From Prochlorococcus marinus subsp. pastoris str. CCMP1986 (GTDB taxonomy: Bacteria; Cyanobacteriota; Cyanobacteriia; PCC-6307; Cyanobiaceae): a stretch of DNA of 32,000 nucleotides. The position numbers were made by a program, and so were the translations under genes. The notes beneath the pieces are model-generated. The model had not been told where the DNA came from. It ran no database searches and was given only the letters and a program-made list of their open reading frames with translations. Positions 641-8,511 of this stretch are shown here, piece after piece. Within the stretch, counting starts at the first letter, position 1, and each line of letters opens with the position of its first letter. The DNA is taken from the NCBI RefSeq assembly GCF_000011465.1, contig NC_005072.1, positions 360,001-392,000 of the forward strand, given 5' to 3'.

Positions 641-871
641 TTGACTTGGATAACTCAAATGCAAGATCAAAGAATTGAAAAGATAGCAGCAGTCACAGTA
701 AACATAACTAAGGTTCTGGCAATAATTTATTTTGGCTTAGTAGAAGTATTTAAAATAGGCAAATTAACTAGAAAGATATTAGTTACTGAATCTAATAATT
801 CTCAAAAATGGGCTTCAAAAACTTATTCAATTTTAAAAATACGACAAGCTAGACAAAAACTAGCAGCATAA
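641..871 (+). CDS. Hypothetical small protein with one hydrophobic segment; the TTG start is doubtful and an internal ATG lies at 659
   Basis: An ORF only, with no recognisable motif. It sits in an AT-rich spacer. Confidence 0.25.
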   Translation: MTWITQMQDQRIEKIAAVTVNITKVLAIIYFGLVEVFKIGKLTRKILVTESNNSQKWASKTYSILKIRQARQKLAA

Positions 872-1090
872 AAAATTAGTTATTTTTAAGCCGCATTATA
901 TTCATCCCTATCTTCAAGCTCTCTCATAAATCTTTTATCTCCTATAAAATATTTTTTTATATTTAACTTTTCAGCTTCCTTTGCACTTGAAGGCATCTTT
1001 AGCCATTCAATAGGTATATCTTTTTTATATTTTATTTCATCATTTTCCACTAATAAAAATTTTGGTTTGTTTTAAATGACTGTTTTAAAG

Positions 1091-1597
1091 TTAATTACGT
1101 TTCCTCATTTGTTCAAACATTGTTAGGTATTGAAGAGGAAATACATCCGCTAAGTTTTCAATCCTTTCATCATCTAACTCAACCCCTTCGGGCAGTTTTT
1201 TTATTAATTTTGGAATAGCCAATTTTGTAGCATCTTTACAAAAATTGATTCTATATACTGACTCTTTTTGAATGGTCTCTTTAATTGACCCATCTTTTTC
1301 AAAAATAGAATTTATATCGAGATTGTTTCCCTTCAAGAGAGCAATCAATACGCCATCAGCAATCCTAAGTGCTTCTTTTGAATCTTTTCCATTTTTAATC
1401 CCAAATACCCATGTGCAAGCACCTACTCCAAAAGCTCTTGCAATACATTCATCATTACCTATTTCATCACAAGGCAATTTGAATGAATCCTCAATTTTCT
1501 TTAAGTCATAACCTTTTTCTCCCTCTGGAAAACCAGCAGAAGTTTTAATTGGAGAAATTAAACTTATTAATAGTGATAGAAGAAATAATTTTTTCAT
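1091..1597 (-). CDS. Hypothetical secreted protein
   Basis: A 168-aa ORF with a textbook N-terminal signal peptide (MKKLFLLSLLISLISPIKTSA|G) and several Cys residues. No family was recognised. Confidence 0.65.
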   Translation of the reverse strand: MKKLFLLSLLISLISPIKTSAGFPEGEKGYDLKKIEDSFKLPCDEIGNDECIARAFGVGACTWVFGIKNGKDSKEALRIADGVLIALLKGNNLDINSIFEKDGSIKETIQKESVYRINFCKDATKLAIPKLIKKLPEGVELDDERIENLADVFPLQYLTMFEQMRKRN

Positions 1598-1950: not shown

Positions 1951-2733
1951 TTATTTAACAGCGAAAGTTACTCCCATTACGGCAGTAATATCTTTCTTTA
2001 TAGTAGACGTGTCATAAGATCCCCAGCTGCTTACACTTGTGGAATTAGGAACTGTTATCTGAAAAACTCCAGTATTAACTCTTTTCAAACCACCTACTTC
2101 AGAACCTGCCTGTAAAGCAATTGCCTCGGCTCTTACTCTTGCATCTTTCGCTGCCTTAGCGAGCATATCAACTCTTTTATCAGCAAGTTTTGAATAGGTA
2201 AATTCAGGACGACTTGGTTTTACTCTTACACCTTTACCAAGCAATTCTGTTATCTGACTATGAGTCTTCTGGATGTTATAAACATCCCTACTCTCAATCT
2301 CAATATTCTGATAAGTGATCCATTCAGTTCTAATGATTTCATTAGTCTTTGGATGCTTAGTTTTATATTCACTAATACTTGCAGGACCAAGATAAACGTC
2401 TTGCTTCACGCTGTCCTTAATTCCATTGGCGTTAAGAAATTCCATTGTCTTGTTTATAGACTGTTTATGCTTGGTAAATGAGTCAATCTGAGTTTTACCT
2501 GAGGTCTTTACCTGGACAGACCATTTTGCTATATCACTTTCAAAACTCTCAGTACTAGCACCAGTAACAGTAATCGTATTCTCCACAGTCCTGAACCCTC
2601 TGACAAGAACAGTGGATGCACCTATAAAACCCCCAAGAGACAAAACTGCCATTGCAAATACGAGTGGCGGGGTACGGCGAATAATACTCAGAGAATCGCC
2701 TGGAAGCGACCTGAGATATTTAATGATTTTCAT
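1951..2733 (-). CDS. SIMPL-domain (DUF541) protein with an N-terminal membrane anchor
   Basis: A 260-aa ORF. It has an N-terminal TM segment (PPLVFAMAVLSLGGFIGASTVLV). This is followed by 'ITVTGAS...' and a C-terminal 'KAAKDARVRAEAIALQAGSEVGGLKRV' block typical of SIMPL/26-kDa periplasmic antigen proteins. Confidence 0.7.
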   Translation of the reverse strand: MKIIKYLRSLPGDSLSIIRRTPPLVFAMAVLSLGGFIGASTVLVRGFRTVENTITVTGASTESFESDIAKWSVQVKTSGKTQIDSFTKHKQSINKTMEFLNANGIKDSVKQDVYLGPASISEYKTKHPKTNEIIRTEWITYQNIEIESRDVYNIQKTHSQITELLGKGVRVKPSRPEFTYSKLADKRVDMLAKAAKDARVRAEAIALQAGSEVGGLKRVNTGVFQITVPNSTSVSSWGSYDTSTIKKDITAVMGVTFAVK

Positions 2734-3006
2734 TTTTATAAGTATGTGTGTAGGAACTTTTTAACAGCTGAACCGAAAGGAAAATATTTTTAAAAACCCT
2801 GATCTCAAATCCTTCAGTTCTATTTGGCCATTAAGGGAAACATCTTAAGTTGATGTGCCAATTTTGGAGTCGGTTACTAATATTGCCAAATGAAATAATG
2901 ATACGCAAGAAGTATATTTGTATTATGAATAAAGGTAATTAGAATTAATTACATAAATAATATTTTTACTGATGAAGAGTTAATAGATTTAGTCTCTAAA
3001 ATTTAT

Positions 3007-5496
3007 CTAAATTTCAAATTCTTCTCTTGAAATTACAGTGTCGAAAAGTCCAACTTCATCATGAGTATTTTTTGTTAGACCGATATAACTAAGGCTCGAG
3101 TCCTCATATCTTTTGAAATTATAAATAGCATCATTCATCAAACTACTATTAAAGACATTTAGGCTAATAAGTAAATCAAAATCTTTGAGACTAAGACCAG
3201 TAACCTTTTTAAAAAGTCCTGGCTCTAATTGTGTAATTACATCTTTTAAAGACCTTTCTCTGTAATCAGTTAAATACATGAATATTGGAATTCTGGTAGC
3301 AAACTTGATAAGTTGCTTTTGAATTTTTTTTCTTAGATTGATAAATTCTTTTTCCTGTTCTGTTAGTTGTTTTTTTTCTTTTTTATTTAATTCCTCCTCA
3401 TTAGCTTTTGTTTTTAAATTTTTTATTGATTCTGAGGAATTGATTATCGAAGTTATATCCTCATTTAGACTCCTAAATCCTTCAATAGCTTGTAAGGCTT
3501 TCATTGCTTCATCGTTACCCATAAGCCTTTCTAAAGTTGAATTATCTACGTTAACTAGAAGCGCACTTTCCCAACGACGAGCTAAAAGAGTAGCGGTTGT
3601 TCCGCTTATTGTCATGTCCAAAATTGATGTAGCATCTACCTCAATCATTGAGCTACCGTCATAAGATAAAACTGGTAAGAATTTTATAAACTCACCAACT
3701 TTTTTTTCAGGATCATTTTCTTGATAATTCAAGTTACAACTATAGTCTGAAATCTGAGTTAGAGCTCTGTTAGGAGCAAAATCAAATACATAACAATTAT
3801 GCTTTAGGACGTCTTTCTCATTAGGCGATTTACTATCTGGATTTTCTATTTCCCATGGTGTTTGAACTCTGAAGGCAGATTGAAAATATGTTTCGGGACT
3901 TGATATATTTCTAAGCATGAATATCCCACTCCAGGGTTTAACAGAGACACCAGTTGTTAATTTTCCGCAAGAAAGTGTTATTGATTTTGACTCAAGTGGA
4001 TTATCCATAGCATCCCTTACAGGCCATAAGGCTTTCAGACCAAGACCTGCTTTATTACCTGCAGCAACAATAATTTTATAACTATGAAAAAAAGTATTTT
4101 GTCTCTCTTGAAGTAAATTTCTCATCGCAAAACACGATGAAACATTTGGTAGGTACCAAAAAGTATGGCTAAGTAGTGATAATAATCTACTATCACTAAA
4201 AGGATAGGGTGGTTTCTTATCTTTTAATTTTAAAGTTGTTTTAATTTCTTCTAAATTTTGACCTCTAATAAGATCTAACCATTTTTGTACTTCATCTTTA
4301 TAAATAAATTCAGAAGCATCGTCCTCATATTTTGCAGAGAAGAAGGTATTGAGATCAAATTCATCAAATTCCCCCTCATTTGCAACTTCTAAAATATAAT
4401 CCGGCACTTTATAAGTCATTAAAATCATTCTTGGTAATGATGAATATGGATTTTTATCACCTACCCAATTATTTTTTGCATTTTGTTCATCTGAATAGGT
4501 CCAATTAAAAATTTGTTCTTCAATGAATTCTCCAGTTGATATTGCTCTGAAAGGCGTTCCTGAAAGATATAAATAAAAATTTGTTGAGATTGGCATATTT
4601 TCCTCTTTAAAAAAAGATATACCTTCACCCTCTTGCAGCTTTATTTCTTTATTTTCTTCCCCCTCAAATAGCTCTTTCGCTCTTTCTCTCCACGCCCCAT
4701 AATGATATTCATCTAGTATTACGCAATCCCATTTTATGGTGTGAACCCATTCATTTTTTGGTTTAATTCCCCCTGCATTGTTTTTTCCAAGAAAATCTTG
4801 AAATGATCCAAAACAAACAAAAGGTTTACTTTTATCAGCTTCTCCAAATGACATCCCATTTCTGTTTATAAATTGCCAACCTTCAAAATCAATATGTGTA
4901 AGTAAATCCTCTTCCCACGCACTTTGAACTGCTGGTTTAAAAGTTAAGACAAGCACTTTCGTCCATTTCATTTCTAAAGCCAACTTATAAGCTGCAAAAG
5001 TTTTACCAAATCTCATTTTTGCGTTCCATAAGAAATGGGGAACTTTATTAGATTTTTCCTTTATGAAACCATTTATATAATTTTTTGTTTTCTCTATCGC
5101 TTCTTTTTGTTCTGGACGAAGTCCAAAATTATTTGGCCTGCCCTCTACTCCAATATCTCCAAAAGCAACTAGATCTATAGCAGCATTCACATCAGTTACT
5201 TTGCAGCGGAACCACTCACCGGCTGGATTAGGAAAACCTTTAGCTCTTAAAATTTTATGAACATCTTTATCAATAAAAGAAGTCCCATCTTTCCTAATAG
5301 CACTTCTATCTAAATGAATAGTATATGTTTCTTCTCCGGGAGTAATTATGGGATACTGTGCTTCAACTCTTTGCTTAACAGTATTTTTAGATGTGAATCC
5401 TACTTTTAATAAACCTTGATATTGCGGATGTGAATCAGAATAAGCATATATCTTGGGATTCCCTTCATACCTTTTATAGAAAAAGTCTTTAGCCAT
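3007..5496 (-). CDS. Fusion of a GIY-YIG/T5orf172-like nuclease domain to an SF2 (ResIII-type, DEAH-like) helicase; candidate restriction/effector subunit
   Basis: 829 aa. The N-terminal ~115 aa carry a T5orf172/GIY-YIG-like pattern: 'KIYAY', 'LLKVGFT', 'VKQRVEAQ', 'VHKILRAKG....GEWFRC'. The helicase motifs that follow are 'LRPEQKEAI', Walker A 'KMRFGKTF', Ia 'VLVLTFKPAV', II 'VILDEYHYG', III 'LYLSGTPFRA' and VI-like 'YFQSAFRVQTP'. The C-terminal ~200 aa are unassigned and include a Lys/Glu-rich coiled-coil stretch. The start codon lies 1 nt after the upstream gene's stop (TAA T ATG). Confidence 0.85.
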   Translation of the reverse strand: MAKDFFYKRYEGNPKIYAYSDSHPQYQGLLKVGFTSKNTVKQRVEAQYPIITPGEETYTIHLDRSAIRKDGTSFIDKDVHKILRAKGFPNPAGEWFRCKVTDVNAAIDLVAFGDIGVEGRPNNFGLRPEQKEAIEKTKNYINGFIKEKSNKVPHFLWNAKMRFGKTFAAYKLALEMKWTKVLVLTFKPAVQSAWEEDLLTHIDFEGWQFINRNGMSFGEADKSKPFVCFGSFQDFLGKNNAGGIKPKNEWVHTIKWDCVILDEYHYGAWRERAKELFEGEENKEIKLQEGEGISFFKEENMPISTNFYLYLSGTPFRAISTGEFIEEQIFNWTYSDEQNAKNNWVGDKNPYSSLPRMILMTYKVPDYILEVANEGEFDEFDLNTFFSAKYEDDASEFIYKDEVQKWLDLIRGQNLEEIKTTLKLKDKKPPYPFSDSRLLSLLSHTFWYLPNVSSCFAMRNLLQERQNTFFHSYKIIVAAGNKAGLGLKALWPVRDAMDNPLESKSITLSCGKLTTGVSVKPWSGIFMLRNISSPETYFQSAFRVQTPWEIENPDSKSPNEKDVLKHNCYVFDFAPNRALTQISDYSCNLNYQENDPEKKVGEFIKFLPVLSYDGSSMIEVDATSILDMTISGTTATLLARRWESALLVNVDNSTLERLMGNDEAMKALQAIEGFRSLNEDITSIINSSESIKNLKTKANEEELNKKEKKQLTEQEKEFINLRKKIQKQLIKFATRIPIFMYLTDYRERSLKDVITQLEPGLFKKVTGLSLKDFDLLISLNVFNSSLMNDAIYNFKRYEDSSLSYIGLTKNTHDEVGLFDTVISREEFEI

Positions 5497-5497
5497 A

Positions 5498-6988
5498 TTA
5501 TTCCATTTTCATAATGGTCTTTTCAATAAAATTTATTTCCTCACTATCTAGTTCATACTTTGAATAAAGCTCGTTATCAGAGTACTTTTTATTCCAATTA
5601 AGTTTTGGTACAAATGCAAATCTTCCTTTTGTTATATGTTGAGAAACAGTCATCTGAGCAATTAGAAATCTAGTAAATTTAAGTTTTAGAAATGCTTCTA
5701 AATTCTCAGCCATTTCTTGGTTATCAAAAGTATCTATAACTAAATAAGTTTCAGTACATACTGTATTTGGAGGTGCTAAAAATAATTTTGCTAAAACCTT
5801 TCTCTCCCCATTTTTATTTGGTTGTCCAGCATGATCATAGGAAATGTTAGAGGTTAAGACTTTCCATTTTGGTATTAATTCTTTATTGTTAAGCACCTCA
5901 CCTGAAGATATTTTGCCCTCACCTTTACTTGTTATGAGATTTAAGTCTCCCGTCTCTTTTGCTTTCACTGTTGTTGTCAAACCAAATGCTGCTCGACTAC
6001 TAACGACAGAATCCAAAGTTAATTCATTTTTGGTTCTGATTTTTTTAATTATGTTTGAAGCTATTCCAAACCTTATAAAGGTGTCGAATTCATTTAATTT
6101 TCTATAAGAAATTTGTTTCTCATCTCTCCAGTTATTTATTACTTCAGTTAAGCCTTCATAATCTCTTTGCCAATGAAAATAGCAAACCCCACCTGCTATA
6201 TCAACTCCTGGAAAACAATCTTTTGCTTCAGGATAATCAACAATTTTTTTTATTCTTTTATCATTCAACATTTCATTTCTGAATTCGTCTAATCCTTTAC
6301 CCCCTGCATACCACCTTGATGGAATAATCATTAATAAATGTCTAGGATTTAATTTCTTCGCCTGTTCAATAAACCTATTGTAAATTGGTTTAGCACTCTT
6401 ACCAAAACCACTATCAGATATTTGATAAGGGGGATTGCCAATAACTACATCAAATTTCATATCAAAAAATAAATTAGGATTATCTTTATGAATGAATGGG
6501 TAAGCATATGTTTCTAACTCATCATTCCTATTGTAGGCATCCTGCGGGGCTCCACAATATTTACATCGTGAATTTACCCATAAATGATTTGATCGACTAT
6601 AAAAAATATTTCCACTCTCATTTACTGATGCATCAAAAAGAGAATATTTGCTATCAGCTTTTTTGGAACAGTACAAAGTCCTCCTACCCATGAGGCTTGT
6701 TAGTTCAGTTGTCGCGATTCCAAAAACTTGATTTTTAAAAATATTCTCAATACGTTTCGTCTTCTCAGGTAATGTATTTACTAATTGCTTATCTAATCTT
6801 TTAGCTATTTCCCTTAAAAATATTCCTGATTTCAAGCATGGGTCTATAAACGTAGAAGTTTTATCCTCAAAAATTTCTTTTGGCAAACTGTCCAAGATTT
6901 CATTGGCTAATGATGGAGTGGTAAAGACTTCATCGCTACTCAAATTAGCTAAACAATTTAGTACATCAGGATTATGTCTCTTTTTCAT
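5498..6988 (-). CDS. Gamma-class N6-adenine DNA methyltransferase (Eco57I-type methylase domain) with a C-terminal target-recognition region
   Basis: 496 aa. Motif X is 'DEVFTTPSLANEILDSLP' and motif I is 'FIDPCLKSGIFLREIAKRL'. An insertion contains the Cys cluster 'LYCSKK...RCKYCGAP'. The catalytic motif IV is 'FDVVIGNPPYQ'. The tail 'YELDSEEINFIEKTI' is typical of this methylase family. Confidence 0.9.
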   Translation of the reverse strand: MKKRHNPDVLNCLANLSSDEVFTTPSLANEILDSLPKEIFEDKTSTFIDPCLKSGIFLREIAKRLDKQLVNTLPEKTKRIENIFKNQVFGIATTELTSLMGRRTLYCSKKADSKYSLFDASVNESGNIFYSRSNHLWVNSRCKYCGAPQDAYNRNDELETYAYPFIHKDNPNLFFDMKFDVVIGNPPYQISDSGFGKSAKPIYNRFIEQAKKLNPRHLLMIIPSRWYAGGKGLDEFRNEMLNDKRIKKIVDYPEAKDCFPGVDIAGGVCYFHWQRDYEGLTEVINNWRDEKQISYRKLNEFDTFIRFGIASNIIKKIRTKNELTLDSVVSSRAAFGLTTTVKAKETGDLNLITSKGEGKISSGEVLNNKELIPKWKVLTSNISYDHAGQPNKNGERKVLAKLFLAPPNTVCTETYLVIDTFDNQEMAENLEAFLKLKFTRFLIAQMTVSQHITKGRFAFVPKLNWNKKYSDNELYSKYELDSEEINFIEKTIMKME

Positions 6989-7616
6989 TTTTATTAATCT
7001 TCAGGAAATGAATTAAATCAAACTCAGCAATAGGCTCTGGTATAAAAGCTAATTCACCAAGATCTGAAAACAATGGCAATGCATTTAGTTCTTCATTATT
7101 AATGATTGATTTGAAAGAATAGTCAAGTCGTTTCACTTTATATTTGGATATTAAACTCCATTTTGAAAAAATAATAGGTGTATCACTTGAAGGGAGCTTT
7201 AAAGTCAATGCATCCCCCCAAGTAATATTTTTTGATAAAAGAAATTTAATTACTCCAAAGAAATCAGTATCTTCTTTGTATTTATTCTCGTAAAATTTTT
7301 TTATTTTTTTAAAAAGTCTTAATTGACATTTAGAAACATTTTCCTTCTGGATATCAATACCATAAAGGGATGAGACAGCAAGAAATATATCTATTTGATA
7401 ATTTAATTTTATTGATTTATTTAACAATGAAATTGACTTAAGCTTTCTATCAAGTACTTCTATTAAAAAATTGCCATCGCCACATGCAGGCTCTAAAAAA
7501 GTAGAATCTAATCTTCTTGTTTCTTCATCAACAATATCCAGCATTCCATTAACTTCGTTTGATGAAGTGAAAACTTCTCCATATTTTTCAATTTTTGTTT
7601 TAATATTCTTAATCAT
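6972..7616 (-). CDS. Methyltransferase-like half protein: SAM-binding motifs X and I-III are present, catalytic motif IV (NPPY) and the TRD are absent. It is either a decayed gene or an accessory subunit.
   Basis: 214 aa. Motif X is 'GEVFTSSNEVNGMLDIV', canonical motif I is 'FLEPACGDGNFLIEVL', motif II is 'LYGIDIQ' and motif III is 'NITWGDAL'. Where FDxxxGNPPY is expected the sequence reads 'DTPIIFSKWS'. The 3' end overlaps the start of the next gene by 17 nt (6972-6988). Confidence 0.65.
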   Translation of the reverse strand: MIKNIKTKIEKYGEVFTSSNEVNGMLDIVDEETRRLDSTFLEPACGDGNFLIEVLDRKLKSISLLNKSIKLNYQIDIFLAVSSLYGIDIQKENVSKCQLRLFKKIKKFYENKYKEDTDFFGVIKFLLSKNITWGDALTLKLPSSDTPIIFSKWSLISKYKVKRLDYSFKSIINNEELNALPLFSDLGELAFIPEPIAEFDLIHFLKINKNEKET

Positions 7617-7821
7617 TCCGTAATTCTAAAATTTCGAAAAATTTATACAACTAAGTTTTTAAAAATATTACCTTTATCTACATACTATAAAAATTTAAAA
7701 TGTGGGAAAAACGTGGGCAAAAGTCAACCTCTAGTGAACATTTACGAACAATACAAAACACTAGCATATCGCTACTAATAAGGTTATGACTAATAATTCT
7801 AGTTATAGCTTATTTTGCACG

Positions 7822-7868
7822 GTTGCTTTGGGAGCACTAGGTCGCAGGTTCCAATCCTTTAGCCCTGA
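7822..7868 (+). pseudogene. Decayed tRNA-Pro(UGG)-like 3' fragment; candidate integration (att) scar
   Basis: The sequence GTTGC-TTTGGGA-GCACT-AGGTC-GCAGG-TTCCAAT-CCTTT-AGCCCTGA reads as a tRNA 3' portion. It has an anticodon loop UU-UGG-GA with G37, a variable loop AGGUC and a T-loop TTCCAAT. The stems carry mismatches and no matching 5' acceptor or D arm lies upstream. Confidence 0.45.
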
Positions 7869-8001
7869 CTCTAGAAATCCAAGTTATAAAAAAGCTTCCT
7901 TAGACTCACTTTTTTTAGATAATTATGATGAAATACGTTTCCATCATAATCCCAAAAAAAATGGAATCTCTATTTTTTTTTGATAACCATTAACACTATT
8001 T

Positions 8002-8220
8002 TTAATTGTTGTAATTTTGCATCATCGTATCCCGAAATTTCCTTTCGATGGGTAAGGTTTGAGAGGTTCTTTTGTTTGCAGAACCTAGTCCTTCGTTATA
8101 AACATATAAAAGTTTGGTCCTACCGCTATTTTCGCCATTCACTCTAAATCCACGACCAAAATTAGTGCAGATATTTTTTCTTAATTCTTTTTCCCAAGAA
8201 GTGCTGTTAGCACTAGTCAT
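8002..8220 (-). CDS. Hypothetical protein (72 aa)
   Basis: An ORF between the tRNA-like scar and tRNA-Thr. No confident family. There is a faint resemblance to the beta-rich N-terminal DNA-binding modules of integrases ('GFRVNGENSGRTKLLYVY'), which is not sufficient for a call. Confidence 0.35.
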   Translation of the reverse strand: MTSANSTSWEKELRKNICTNFGRGFRVNGENSGRTKLLYVYNEGLGSANKRTSQTLPIERKFRDTMMQNYNN

Positions 8221-8270
8221 TATAAAAATGTAATTAGTGCAAATATAAGTGCAGAATTGCTATATTGTCG

Positions 8271-8286
8271 ATATATCTAGATATAT
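8271..8286. repeat. Perfect 16-bp palindrome ATATATCTAGATATAT
   Basis: Read directly from the sequence. It lies about 50 bp upstream of the 72-aa ORF start and about 60 bp from the tRNA-Thr 3' end. Confidence 0.9.
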
Positions 8287-8347
8287 TTGGTGTTTATAGA
8301 TTCTTCTTGAATTTCTTAAAAGCTAGTGATAGAGAGGTTTCGAGGTA

Positions 8348-8419
<72 letters not shown>

Positions 8420-8429
8420 TGAAAAAAAG

Positions 8430-8511
8430 TGGGCCGGGTTGGATTTGAACCAACGTAGGCAGAGCCAGCGGATTTACAGTCCGCCCCCTTTAACCACTCG
8501 GGCACCGACCC
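8430..8511 (-). tRNA. tRNA-Tyr (anticodon GUA), class II with a long variable arm
   Basis: The reverse complement is GGGTCGG...GCGGA-CTGTAAA-TCCGC, then a long variable arm, then GTTGG-TTCAAAT-CCAAC and CCGGCCC-A. All stems pair. It lies 10 nt from tRNA-Thr and is probably co-transcribed with it. Confidence 0.95.

Follow-up and report, generated by a model that had tools for sequence, protein, structure and literature searches.

The window analysed in this study, a stretch of 32,000 nucleotides from the genome of Prochlorococcus marinus subsp. pastoris str. CCMP1986, contains a tightly packed cassette of three genes, here termed A, B and C (Table 1). A overlaps B by 17 nucleotides, and C, the last gene of the cassette, starts with an ATG codon one nucleotide past the stop of B and ends with a stop codon at 3007–3009. 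The fusion of a nuclease to a helicase that a preliminary description had proposed at the position of gene C is indeed present, and all motifs quoted there were found in the translation. The strand had been left unspecified in this description; the open reading frame is located on the reverse strand, and the forward-strand frame of the same span is interrupted by stops throughout.

Table 1. Features of the A-B-C cassette, with positions given in window coordinates and residues numbered as in protein C.
Feature	Position	Strand	Basis
Gene A, 214-aa methylase-like protein	6972..7616	-	weak Pfam MmeI_Mtase, family alignment, PDB profile matches
Gene B, 496-aa gamma-class N6-adenine methylase	5498..6988	-	Pfam, PADLOC, conservation profile
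Gene C, 829-aa nuclease-motor-connector protein	3007..5496	-	ORF list, translation, Pfam, homologues
T5orf172 (GIY-YIG superfamily) domain of C, putative nuclease, residues ~10-115	5152..5469	-	Pfam, homologues, conserved residues, model
SF2 helicase-like motor of C, residues ~120-620	3637..5139	-	Pfam ResIII, PADLOC, invariant motifs, Foldseek
All-helical C-terminal region of C, unmatched fold, proposed connector/dock to B, residues 621-829	3010..3636	-	AF2 model, fusions
Long Lys/Glu-rich helical hairpin of C, residues 677-733	3298..3468	-	model, identity profile
Compact helical bundle of C (RIPxFMYLTDxRE...), residues 734-806	3079..3297	-	identity profile

Domain organisation of the C protein

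Gene C encodes a real and highly conserved protein, whose open reading frame lies far outside chance expectation. A protein search gave scores to more than 8000 homologues, the best 120 of which share 67–92% identity with C over its full length, and a collection containing one genome per species yielded at least 598 candidate stretches that encode a relative. The protein consists of three parts, an N-terminal T5orf172 domain, a motor of the SF2 ResIII/Snf2-like type and a C-terminal region of about 210 amino acids, which in longer homologues is followed by extensions that match no Pfam family. Searches of PDB sequences with the single sequence of C, with a full-length profile and with a profile of the N-terminal domain returned matches at chance level only, and among the solved structures neither LlaGI nor LlaBIII showed a sequence-level match. 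A profile search with 45 diverse representatives returned to the same clade of 62–72% identity, and sequence diversity was instead obtained from a search of protein representatives, whose sequences were used for a second structure prediction. The full-length AF2 model of C, which was based on 51 close homologues and has a mean pLDDT of 60, was used for coarse secondary structure and generic SF2 matches only.

The assignment of the N-terminus to the GIY-YIG superfamily, as proposed in the preliminary description for residues ~1–115, is borne out by the match of residues 17–110 to the Pfam family T5orf172 (E 6.8e-9, 36.6 bits at a cut-off of 20, covering positions 2–100 of the 101 positions of the profile). 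The same family is matched by the N-terminal domain of all 25 diverse family members investigated, 20 of which also match MUG113, and both Pfam families have been placed in the GIY-YIG clan (PMC8263062). The described motifs are found at residues 15–19 (KIYAY), 29–35 (LLKVGFT), 40–47 (VKQRVEAQ), 80–83 (HKIL) and 93–98 (GEWFRC), with Y17, K31, G33, R43, D76, H80 and E94 as key residues. The catalytic residues of the superfamily, the Tyr of the GIY motif, the Arg of the first helix and the metal-binding Glu, are all present in C. No variation is seen at Y17, and the conservation of R43 and E94, the Arg and Glu whose absence from alignments had been named as an argument against this assignment, ranges from at least 90% to complete in alignments extending down to 29% identity (alignments A2 and A4). 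Over the same range K31 and G33 are conserved to 90% or more, and in this K31-x-G33 element an invariant Lys takes the place of the second Tyr of the GIY-YIG motif. In the full-length model, this domain is predicted with a pLDDT of about 80 as a succession of beta-beta-alpha-beta-alpha-alpha elements, an order that would fit the GIY-YIG fold; a search of its profile against PDB sequences found nothing. A T5orf172 domain has been treated as a nuclease domain of the GIY-YIG superfamily, with Arg and Glu retained, in Gp88 of phage ICP1, which is called an ‘origin-directed nuclease’ in the title of the respective paper (PMC8263062). The N-terminal domain of C is a putative nuclease.

The subsequent motor matches the Pfam family ResIII at residues 124–278 (E 4.7e-7), which covers only the N-lobe of the helicase. 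It contains a Q-like motif (LRPEQ, 126–130), motif I (AKMRFGKT, 159–166), motif Ia (LTFKPAV, 184–190), motif II (DEYH, 262–265), motif III (SGTP, 312–315), a V-like segment (508–519) and motif VI (QSAFRVQTP, 539–547), and among homologues of 29–53% identity the residues of motifs I, II, III and VI either do not vary or are conserved to 90% or more (alignment A2). The helicase core with motifs I, Ia, II, III and a VI-like sequence that had been recognised at residues ~125–620 is supported by both the family model and the conservation of its motifs. Searched with Foldseek, the low-confidence full-length model finds Snf2-family remodellers, SauUSI, LlaBIII and HsdR with E-values between 5e-9 and 5e-7.

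The C-terminal helical region and its junction to the methylase

Beyond residue ~620, C matches nothing in Pfam or NCBIfam, which, together with the PDB sequence searches and Foldseek, agrees with the earlier remark that its last ~200 residues carry no recognisable motif. Structure prediction and Foldseek comparison of this region, both of which had been suggested at the outset, provided a confident AF2 model of residues 585–829 (pLDDT 83.7, pTM 0.76), which is all-helical and contains a long hairpin, with helices at fragment positions 93–116 and 121–149, followed by a compact bundle. The previously noticed Lys/Glu-rich coiled coil, with its charged stretch at residues 695–729, is modelled as part of this hairpin. 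No match to the model was detected in the PDB or BFVD (best E 0.6 and 0.1, respectively), and Foldseek detected no similarity to either the coupler of Type ISP enzymes or the helical and C-terminal domains of HsdR. A PD-(D/E)xK nuclease at the C-terminus, which would have turned C into an ordinary Res-like protein, was rejected, as the predicted fold is all-helical and not of the alpha/beta core type and Foldseek found no match. The hairpin is less conserved than its neighbours, its identity being 63% within the close clade and 23% within a diverse set. The bundle is the best-conserved segment of C; its identity amounts to 86% within the close clade, where the RecA lobes reach 76–78%, and to 45% within the diverse set, and F739, Y741, E747, F762, F794 and E798 are conserved to at least 90%.

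The relationship of this region to the methylase is illustrated in natural fusions, where single-chain relatives join residue ~800 of C directly to residue ~1 of B. In P0246, residues 15–802 of C correspond to residues 4–749 and residues 1–489 of B to residues 750–1189, and the junctions in P0244, P0259 and P0252 are located within about 15 residues of the same position. Single chains with the succession T5orf172-ResIII-Eco57I were also seen by Pfam, and the PADLOC model PDLC03626, a ‘Type IIG REase-MTase’ of 1359 aa, can be aligned first to residues 120–766 of C and then to residues 178–495 of B. Where C and B are fused, gene A is still separate and located upstream; the proteins of E. faecium pAT02-a and L. 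cremoris p1196B are examples of natural fusions with an A partner. The fusions that join residue ~800 of C to residue ~1 of B support the idea of a docking surface, and of the two roles considered in the preliminary description, a docking surface for the methylase or a sensor, we favour the former since the region runs into B in these proteins. The C-terminal region therefore most likely attaches C to methylase B. If we refer to it as a coupler, this denotes a positional analogy only, because no likeness of the region to the coupler of Type ISP enzymes or to the HsdR domains was detected. What a fusion demonstrates is that two proteins are functionally linked and follow each other in one chain, and not the surface through which they touch.

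Instead of a dock, the helical region might serve as a DNA clamp, as a sensor or regulatory domain, or as a dimerisation coiled coil, with B being contacted elsewhere, for example via A or an insert of the helicase. The Lys/Glu-rich hairpin resembles coiled coils that dimerise or contact DNA, and the coupler of Type ISP enzymes is associated with a DNA footprint (PMC4666363). Moreover, in a fusion subfamily that comprises P0260, P0262, P0258 and plasmid proteins from Enterococcus and Lactococcus, the alignment to C ends at residue ~650 and is followed by a different linker of about 230–400 amino acids, which implies that the C-terminal region is replaceable. We nevertheless regard this alternative as unlikely in light of the four independent fusion representatives that keep the bundle, where it abuts residue ~1–8 of B, and of the higher conservation of the bundle relative to the motor, a pattern to be expected if the bundle forms an obligate protein interface with the N-terminus of B, which is equally conserved. 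The roles of a dock and of a clamp, sensor or dimerisation element can coexist in the same region.

Genes A and B and the spread of the cassette

The methylase encoded by gene B matches the Pfam family Eco57I (E 4.4e-34) and the PADLOC models MTase_II and REase_MTase_IIG. Motif X (EVFTTP, 20–25) and motif I (FIDPCLKSGIFL, 47–58) precede the NPPY sequence at residues 185–188. The DPxCKSGxFL element of B is conserved throughout the family, and we take it to resemble the single-glycine motif I of M.TaqI; a complementation by A of a degenerate AdoMet motif in B was set aside in light of this family-wide conservation. Besides the strongly conserved N-terminus, the core of B shows a conservation of 58–64%, compared to 29% in residues 281–400, and this variable region is a putative target-recognition domain. 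Protein A contains motifs X, I, II and III and carries the sequence IIFSKWS at the position expected for NPPY, and its PDB profile matches to HsdM and MmeI are confined to the N-terminal half of the methylase domain.

Of 51 loci for which 3.5 kb or more of upstream sequence was available, 49 carry the genes in the order A-B-C on a single strand, and these loci originate from a wide range of bacterial phyla as well as from CPR bacteria and archaeal MAGs. Elsewhere, genes for YhcG/DUF1016, RhuM, Fic, Bro-N, HEPN or Schlafen/AlbA_2 are located between B and C, and genes of these families also reside inside Type I restriction-modification operons. The mobility of the cassette is reflected in its presence on plasmids, among them small ones and Enterococcus plasmids that carry optrA, and in a Caudoviricetes phage of the gut, with an excisionase annotated in the same record. 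In one fusion variant on Lactococcus plasmids, a different N-terminal module occupies the position of T5orf172. Its identification as LlaGI or LlaBIII was rejected, since the plasmids encode A together with a fused C-B protein of different N-terminus that has no PDB sequence match. In CCMP1986, a scan of positions 2700–8350 detected fewer promoter-like sites than in shuffled sequences and no convincing terminator, and a tRNA-like fragment at ~7818–7862 was unconfirmed by ARAGORN or Rfam. No direct repeats flanking the cassette were found and there is no contrast in GC content between cassette and flanks (0.28–0.36 throughout).

Relation to known systems, proposed mechanism and significance

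Among the systems considered for comparison, A-B-C would in its mode of action most resemble a Type ISP enzyme that is split into subunits and has a GIY-YIG nuclease in the place of Mrr. The fused C-B relatives share with Type ISP proteins the order of modules, consisting of nuclease, SF2 ATPase, connector, gamma-class N6-adenine methylase and variable recognition region (PMC4666363), and LlaBIII (4xqk_A) shows the highest query-normalised TM-score (0.35) among the 50 matches listed for the low-confidence full-length model of C. In the fusions, the motor is followed by a positional equivalent of the coupler and then by the methylase, although with a connector whose predicted fold matches neither 4xqk nor any other PDB entry. 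In contrast to Type ISP enzymes, which are single polypeptides with an N-terminal nuclease of the Mrr/PD-(D/E)xK type, the system described here contains a T5orf172/GIY-YIG domain, is distributed over three genes, with A separate even in C-B fusions, and includes in A an extra conserved methylase-like subunit; neither C nor the fused Lactococcus plasmid proteins show sequence-level similarity to LlaGI or LlaBIII.

A second likeness, established by shared domain families only, concerns the DnmA(YeeA)-YeeB-YeeC cluster of B. subtilis, which combines an MmeI-like methylase with an SF2 helicase and a T5orf172/GIY-YIG protein (PMC2731913, PMC9973331) and for which Morgan et al. (2009) had voiced the same speculation of a Type I-like system modifying a single strand (PMC2731913). 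There, however, helicase and GIY-YIG protein are separate, with T5orf172 located at the C-terminus of YeeC, DnmA is a large MmeI homologue, and a subunit resembling A is not described. With Type I systems, A-B-C shares the separate R subunit composed of nuclease, SF2 translocase and a C-terminal helical part, which in HsdR binds the methylase, and the same kinds of hitch-hiker genes within the operon, and HsdR (4bec) is among the Foldseek matches. Type I systems differ in the RecB-like PD-(D/E)xK nuclease of HsdR, which was not found in C, in C-terminal domains without detectable similarity to C and in separate HsdM and HsdS subunits recognising a bipartite target; NCBIfam and Pfam identified no HsdS or HsdM family in the cassette but only the Eco57I/Alw26-type methylase. 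The Type IIG/IIL enzymes Eco57I and MmeI are related by the Eco57I-like core of B and by the PADLOC label ‘REase_MTase_IIG’ of the fused relatives, yet they lack an ATPase motor and cleave independently of ATP by a PD-ExK nuclease fused to the methylase, whereas B contains no nuclease domain and the nuclease is located on C, the protein with the helicase motifs. A Type III Res protein was rejected, as ResIII is merely the name of the Pfam helicase model. Type III Res proteins contain an N-terminal SF2 helicase and a C-terminal PD-(D/E)xK nuclease and act with a beta-class Mod partner, unlike C with its N-terminal GIY-YIG domain, its predicted all-helical C-terminus and its Eco57I-type partner.

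We consider it probable that C constitutes the R subunit of an ATP-dependent restriction-modification system that consists of three genes and follows a split Type ISP-like logic. In such a system, B would read an asymmetric target with its variable C-terminal region and methylate an adenine, which would protect the DNA of the host, and C would be bound to B via its helical hairpin and bundle (~621–806). On encounter of an unmethylated target, the motor of C would hydrolyse ATP and the complex would move along double-stranded DNA, upon which the T5orf172/GIY-YIG domain would nick or cleave. Because this domain contains a single active site, a double-strand break would probably require two converging complexes. 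A would act as conserved, catalytically dead methylase-like accessory subunit that possibly binds AdoMet. In a more far-reaching version, which we deem rather unlikely, A-B-C would form a distinct and very widespread ATP-dependent class that combines a GIY-YIG nickase on a motor and an unprecedented connector fold with an obligatory AdoMet-binding pseudo-methyltransferase A, which would permit or hold back the action of the nuclease-motor, for example via methylation state or the level of AdoMet. Type I, ISP and III enzymes lack such a control layer.

The presumed nuclease activity of C is the point at which a further alternative departs, where the system would modify DNA and either interfere with invaders without cutting, similar to BREX, or act in epigenetic regulation, with T5orf172 as a DNA-binding module. 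Such a role would accommodate the Lys at position 31 in place of the second Tyr of the motif and the description of the T5orf172 domain of YeeC as largely uncharacterised, with predicted functions related to DNA binding (PMC9973331). It also finds a parallel in the component-related B. subtilis DnmA-YeeB-YeeC, whose methylase regulates genes and which showed no restriction or anti-phage activity, a result that also speaks against the proposed mechanism (PMC9973331); deletion of Vibrio homologues increased the sensitivity to some phages in a study as cited in the same source. We regard this alternative as quite improbable, since the invariance or at least 90% conservation of Y17, R43 and E94 in distant homologues is hard to reconcile with a module that only binds DNA, nuclease activity is proven for one T5orf172 protein (PMC8263062) and the exchanged N-terminal module of the Lactococcus fusion is expected of a swappable effector. 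That the cassette in CCMP1986 is the decaying relic of a mobile element, in which at most the methylase would still function, appears very improbable, for although it adjoins tRNA-Thr and tRNA-Tyr in island-like surroundings and the analogous cluster of B. subtilis has been proposed to be a relic (PMC9973331), the three open reading frames are intact with every motif present and translationally coupled, and a protein identical to C is found on at least 24 contigs, several of which are genome-sized.

The preliminary description had regarded the architecture of C as uncharacterised, and in the literature searched we have found no biochemical characterisation. Its novelty was nevertheless overstated, as the family is huge and already named ‘GIY-YIG nuclease family protein’ by NCBI, and helicase-associated GIY-YIG relatives in restriction-modification were noted in 2009 and 2012 (PMC2731913, PMC3553950). 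If the proposed restriction-modification model is right, A-B-C, which is not known to have been studied experimentally, would rank among those motor-driven restriction systems that are most abundant and most mobile by horizontal transfer, and it would illustrate that the logic of Type ISP and Type I enzymes works with a GIY-YIG nuclease containing a single active site. The existence of split and fused natural versions of the same enzyme offers a way to dissect the communication between motor, nuclease and methylase, and the conserved, presumably dead methylase subunit A raises a concrete question concerning its function. In the streamlined genome of this marine cyanobacterium, A-B-C may act as a barrier against gene flow and against infection by cyanophages.

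Gene C, its putative nuclease domain and its helicase-like motor

Gene C, which encodes the nuclease-motor-connector protein of the A-B-C cassette, is genuine and strongly constrained. Its open reading frame lies on the minus strand and starts with ATG, whereas stops run throughout the plus-strand translation of the same interval, and all motifs quoted in the preliminary description, whose finding is real and whose interpretation is essentially right overall, were located in the translation where it had placed them. Among 5.8 billion proteins searched, at least 8000 homologues were scored, the best 120 of which are full-length, 67-92% identical and derived from Alphaproteobacteria, Planctomycetota, Cloacimonadota and others. 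Their product names at NCBI are 'GIY-YIG nuclease family protein' or 'DEAD/DEAH box helicase family protein', and no NCBIfam model matches C. An identical protein is present on at least 24 contigs, among them CP138976.1, a 1.66-Mb genome whose neighbourhood agrees with the window. A low GC content, together with genes for PipX and cyanate lyase, would point to a marine cyanobacterium resembling Prochlorococcus. An unlikely rival reading holds the cassette to be a relic in this genome.

The assignment of the N-terminus to the T5orf172/GIY-YIG class is borne out by a Pfam match (E 6.8e-9, exceeding the curated cut-off) and by the conserved Arg and Glu. Across 45 representatives of 29-53% identity, Y17 and K31 are invariant and G33, R43, D76 and E94 at least 90% conserved, illustrating that the GIY-type Tyr (Y17), the helix-1 Arg (R43) and the metal-binding Glu (E94) are all retained; the second GIY-YIG Tyr is replaced by a conserved Lys. 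The trimmed N-terminal alignment displays the same pattern, with T5orf172 matching all 25 domains and MUG113 also 20 of them. The predicted secondary structure (beta-beta-alpha-beta-alpha-alpha, pLDDT ~80) fits a GIY-YIG fold. A T5orf172 protein of phage ICP1, called an origin-directed nuclease in the title of its report, is described as belonging to the GIY-YIG superfamily with retained catalytic Arg and Glu (PMC8263062). On the Lactococcus cremoris plasmid p1196B, a fused relative of C and B that is preceded by an A-like partner gene carries a weak DUF4145 match and about 290 residues of other sequence at its N-terminus in place of T5orf172, which suggests that the effector module was exchanged between subfamilies.

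The proposed helicase core is confirmed by a ResIII match in Pfam and by invariant residues of its motifs I (AKMRFGKT), II (DEYH), III (SGTP) and VI (QSAFRVQ) in the diverse set, namely K160, M161, R162, G164, K165, D262, E263, H265, G313, T314, Q539 and R543. Foldseek matches of the full-length model, which is poor (mean pLDDT 60), are generic double-strand-DNA SF2 translocases, namely Snf2-family remodellers, SauUSI, LlaBIII and EcoR124I HsdR (E 5e-9 to 5e-7).

The helical C-terminal region and its probable link to the methylase

A model of residues 585-829, obtained from 99 sequences with distant representatives among them (pLDDT 83.7, pTM 0.76), contains two short beta pairs and becomes all-helical from about residue 622, where several short helices lead into a hairpin, a compact bundle and a short tail. 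The Lys/Glu-rich coiled coil noticed earlier corresponds to this long hairpin. Foldseek found nothing significant in the PDB (best E 0.6, TM at most 0.24) or BFVD (best E 0.1) and detected no likeness to the Type ISP coupler or to HsdR C-terminal domains. A PD-(D/E)xK nuclease, whose presence the preliminary description had named as the outcome that would speak against its reading, was therefore not found at this location, and the all-helical model together with the missing Foldseek match rules it out. Conservation along C is uneven, as illustrated by the identities in the table. Many homologues from Bacteroidales and Clostridia (960-1054 aa) extend 130-220 residues past the end of the window protein, and Pfam assigns no family to these extensions except for one weak tudor-like match.

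The only strong PADLOC match of C is a 1359-residue 'Type IIG REase-MTase' model, which aligns with its residues 120-766 and also with residues 178-495 of the methylase B. Natural single-chain C-B proteins are present among the representatives clustered at 50% identity, where Pfam places T5orf172, ResIII and Eco57I in single chains, and the BLAST junctions indicate that in these fused relatives the helical bundle leads directly into the first methylase residues. Gene fusion classically argues that two proteins are linked both physically and in function and, from sequence, favours the suggested role of the region as docking surface for the methylase, although fusion does not prove the contact surface itself. 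As a less likely rival, the C-terminus may instead clamp DNA, sense a signal or dimerise the protein. In a second fusion subfamily (P0260, P0262, P0258 and plasmid proteins of Enterococcus, Lactococcus and other Bacillota), alignment with C ends at about residue 650 and is followed by a different, longer linker, which identifies the connector as a replaceable module. Fused proteins are arranged as C then B downstream of gene A and split genes as A, B, C, a difference in order that cannot come about merely by losing or gaining a stop codon and implies a rearrangement.

Partner genes, distribution and mobility

A compact minus-strand cassette ends with C; its genes A and B share 17 nt, and 1 nt separates the stop of B from the start of C. 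B matches Pfam Eco57I (E 4.4e-34) and contains motifs X (EVFTTP), I (FIDPCLKSGIFL) and NPPY; its core is 58-64% conserved and residues 281-400 only 29%, the pattern that would be expected of a target-recognition region. A Cys/His cluster between motif I and NPPY (YCSK ... H.W ... C.YCG), kept across 65 homologues, could be a zinc-binding insert of the methylase domain. A, which stays a separate upstream gene in split and fused forms alike, retains motifs X, I, II and III (GEVFTS, LEPACGDGNFL, YGIDI, WGDALTL), with EPACGxGNFL more than 90% conserved in its family, and carries IIFSKWS (consensus PIVFSEWS) at the NPPY position. Its profile matches HsdM and MmeI only within the N-terminal half of the methylase domain, and A could be either a pseudo-methyltransferase or a regulator that binds AdoMet.

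Scanning one genome per species gave at least 598 stretches in which a relative of C is encoded. Among the 80 loci kept are metagenome-assembled genomes assigned to Heimdallarchaeota, 'Candidatus ainarchaeum' and Saccharibacteria, and 49 of the 51 whose sequence upstream of C extends for 3.5 kb or more show the same-strand order A, B, C, the remaining two having B. One or two unrelated genes of the YhcG/DUF1016 (PDDEXK), RhuM, Fic, Bro-N, HEPN-Apea or Schlafen/AlbA_2 types separate B from C in about 24 related loci, and none does so in the window; the same hitch-hikers lodge within Type I operons. Small plasmids, Enterococcus optrA plasmids and a Lactococcus plasmid carry the cassette or the fused version of it, and a complete A-B-C is found in the gut Caudoviricetes phage NatCom_35866 (PV036449.1), where a neighbouring gene bears the annotation 'excisionase and transcriptional regulator'. 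The window cassette adjoins tRNA-Thr and tRNA-Tyr and shows no GC contrast to its flanks. Between gene A and tRNA-Thr, a stretch resembling a tRNA T-arm and 3' part (GGTCGCAGGTTCCAATCC...), oriented opposite to both tRNAs, could be a relic island attachment site; ARAGORN and Rfam make no call there, and the region downstream of C yielded no direct repeat to match it. The same interval holds two small ORFs, each of which the matching genome record lists as a gene; the 72-residue one has no Pfam, NCBIfam or PADLOC match.

Coordinates of features in the window, in C and B (residues) and in related loci
Feature	Coordinates	Strand	Size or remark
Gene A	6972-7616	minus	214 aa
Gene B	5498-6988	minus	496 aa
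Gene C	3007-5496	minus	829 aa
Split order A, B, C	3007-7616
tRNA-Thr	8348-8419	minus
tRNA-Tyr	8429-8511	minus
tRNA-like stretch	~7818-7862	plus
Small ORF	8002-8220	minus	72 aa
Small ORF	7786-7983	plus	65 aa
C, T5orf172	17-110
C, ResIII	124-278
C, RecA lobes			identity 76-78% close clade, 46-48% diverse set
C, hairpin (677-700, 705-733)	677-733		63%, 23%
C, bundle	734-806		86%, 45%
C, tail	807-829		43%, 13%
B, Cys/His cluster	~105-146
Fusion P0246	C 15-802 at 4-749; B 1-489 at 750-1189		1193 aa
Fusion P0244	C 15-826 at 12-772; B 8-276 at 760-987
Fusion P0259	C 15-800 at 8-703; B 8-492 at 712-1105
Fusion P0252	C 14-794 at 12-849; B 6-262 at 864-1099
Fused order	L007 649-4230; L008 2971-6954
p1196B, fused protein	L091 2730-7100		1456 aa
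p1196B, A-like gene	L091 2036-2728
E. faecium pAT02-a, A and fused C-B	L089 4220-9296		~920 bp downstream of optrA resistance gene
Phage NatCom_35866, A-B-C	L092 3685-8916
Genome record with both small ORFs	L004
C-terminal extensions	L054 8482-8937; L083 8494-9156; L047 8479-8931; L074 8503-8952
B-C inserts	L001 6916-8001; L009 2993-4108; L086 4992-5996; L041 4942-5964; L077 4954-5982; L031 3721-5166; L021 5097-5996

Proposed mechanism and relation to known systems

The best-supported reading of A-B-C is a restriction-modification system that depends on ATP and follows the logic of Type ISP. B would recognise and methylate the target, C would dock onto it via its helical C-terminus, the motor would translocate away from unmodified sites and the GIY-YIG domain would cut DNA, probably with two converging complexes since this domain has a single active site. 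We infer complex formation, translocation, cleavage, specificity and defence from properties established at the level of sequence. Type ISP enzymes are defined as single chains with an Mrr nuclease, an SF2 ATPase, a coupler, a methylase and a recognition domain (PMC4666363). Although A-B-C would work alike, it fails membership on four counts, as its nuclease is of the GIY-YIG instead of the Mrr fold, its genes are split, sequence similarity is absent and Foldseek detects no match of the connector to the coupler; it also fails the tests for Types I, III and IIG. A less likely rival is a non-cleaving or epigenetic system. DnmA-YeeB-YeeC of B. subtilis shares the three domain families, there on separate proteins, and no restriction was seen for it; the same report cites a study in which sensitivity to some phages rose upon deletion of the Vibrio homologues (PMC9973331).

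We found no biochemical study of this GIY-YIG nuclease-motor fusion in the literature searched. The idea of helicase-associated GIY-YIG restriction systems is not new: MmeI-like methylases with helicase and GIY-YIG genes on their flanks were described in 2009, along with large single polypeptides, said to 'have received little attention', that combine endonuclease, helicase, methylase and recognition domains (Morgan et al., 2009; PMC2731913), relatives with GIY-YIG nucleases were mentioned in 2012 (Sisakova et al., 2012; PMC3553950), and PF10544 is filed under restriction-modification in a table of defence genes credited to Makarova 2011 and Doron 2018.
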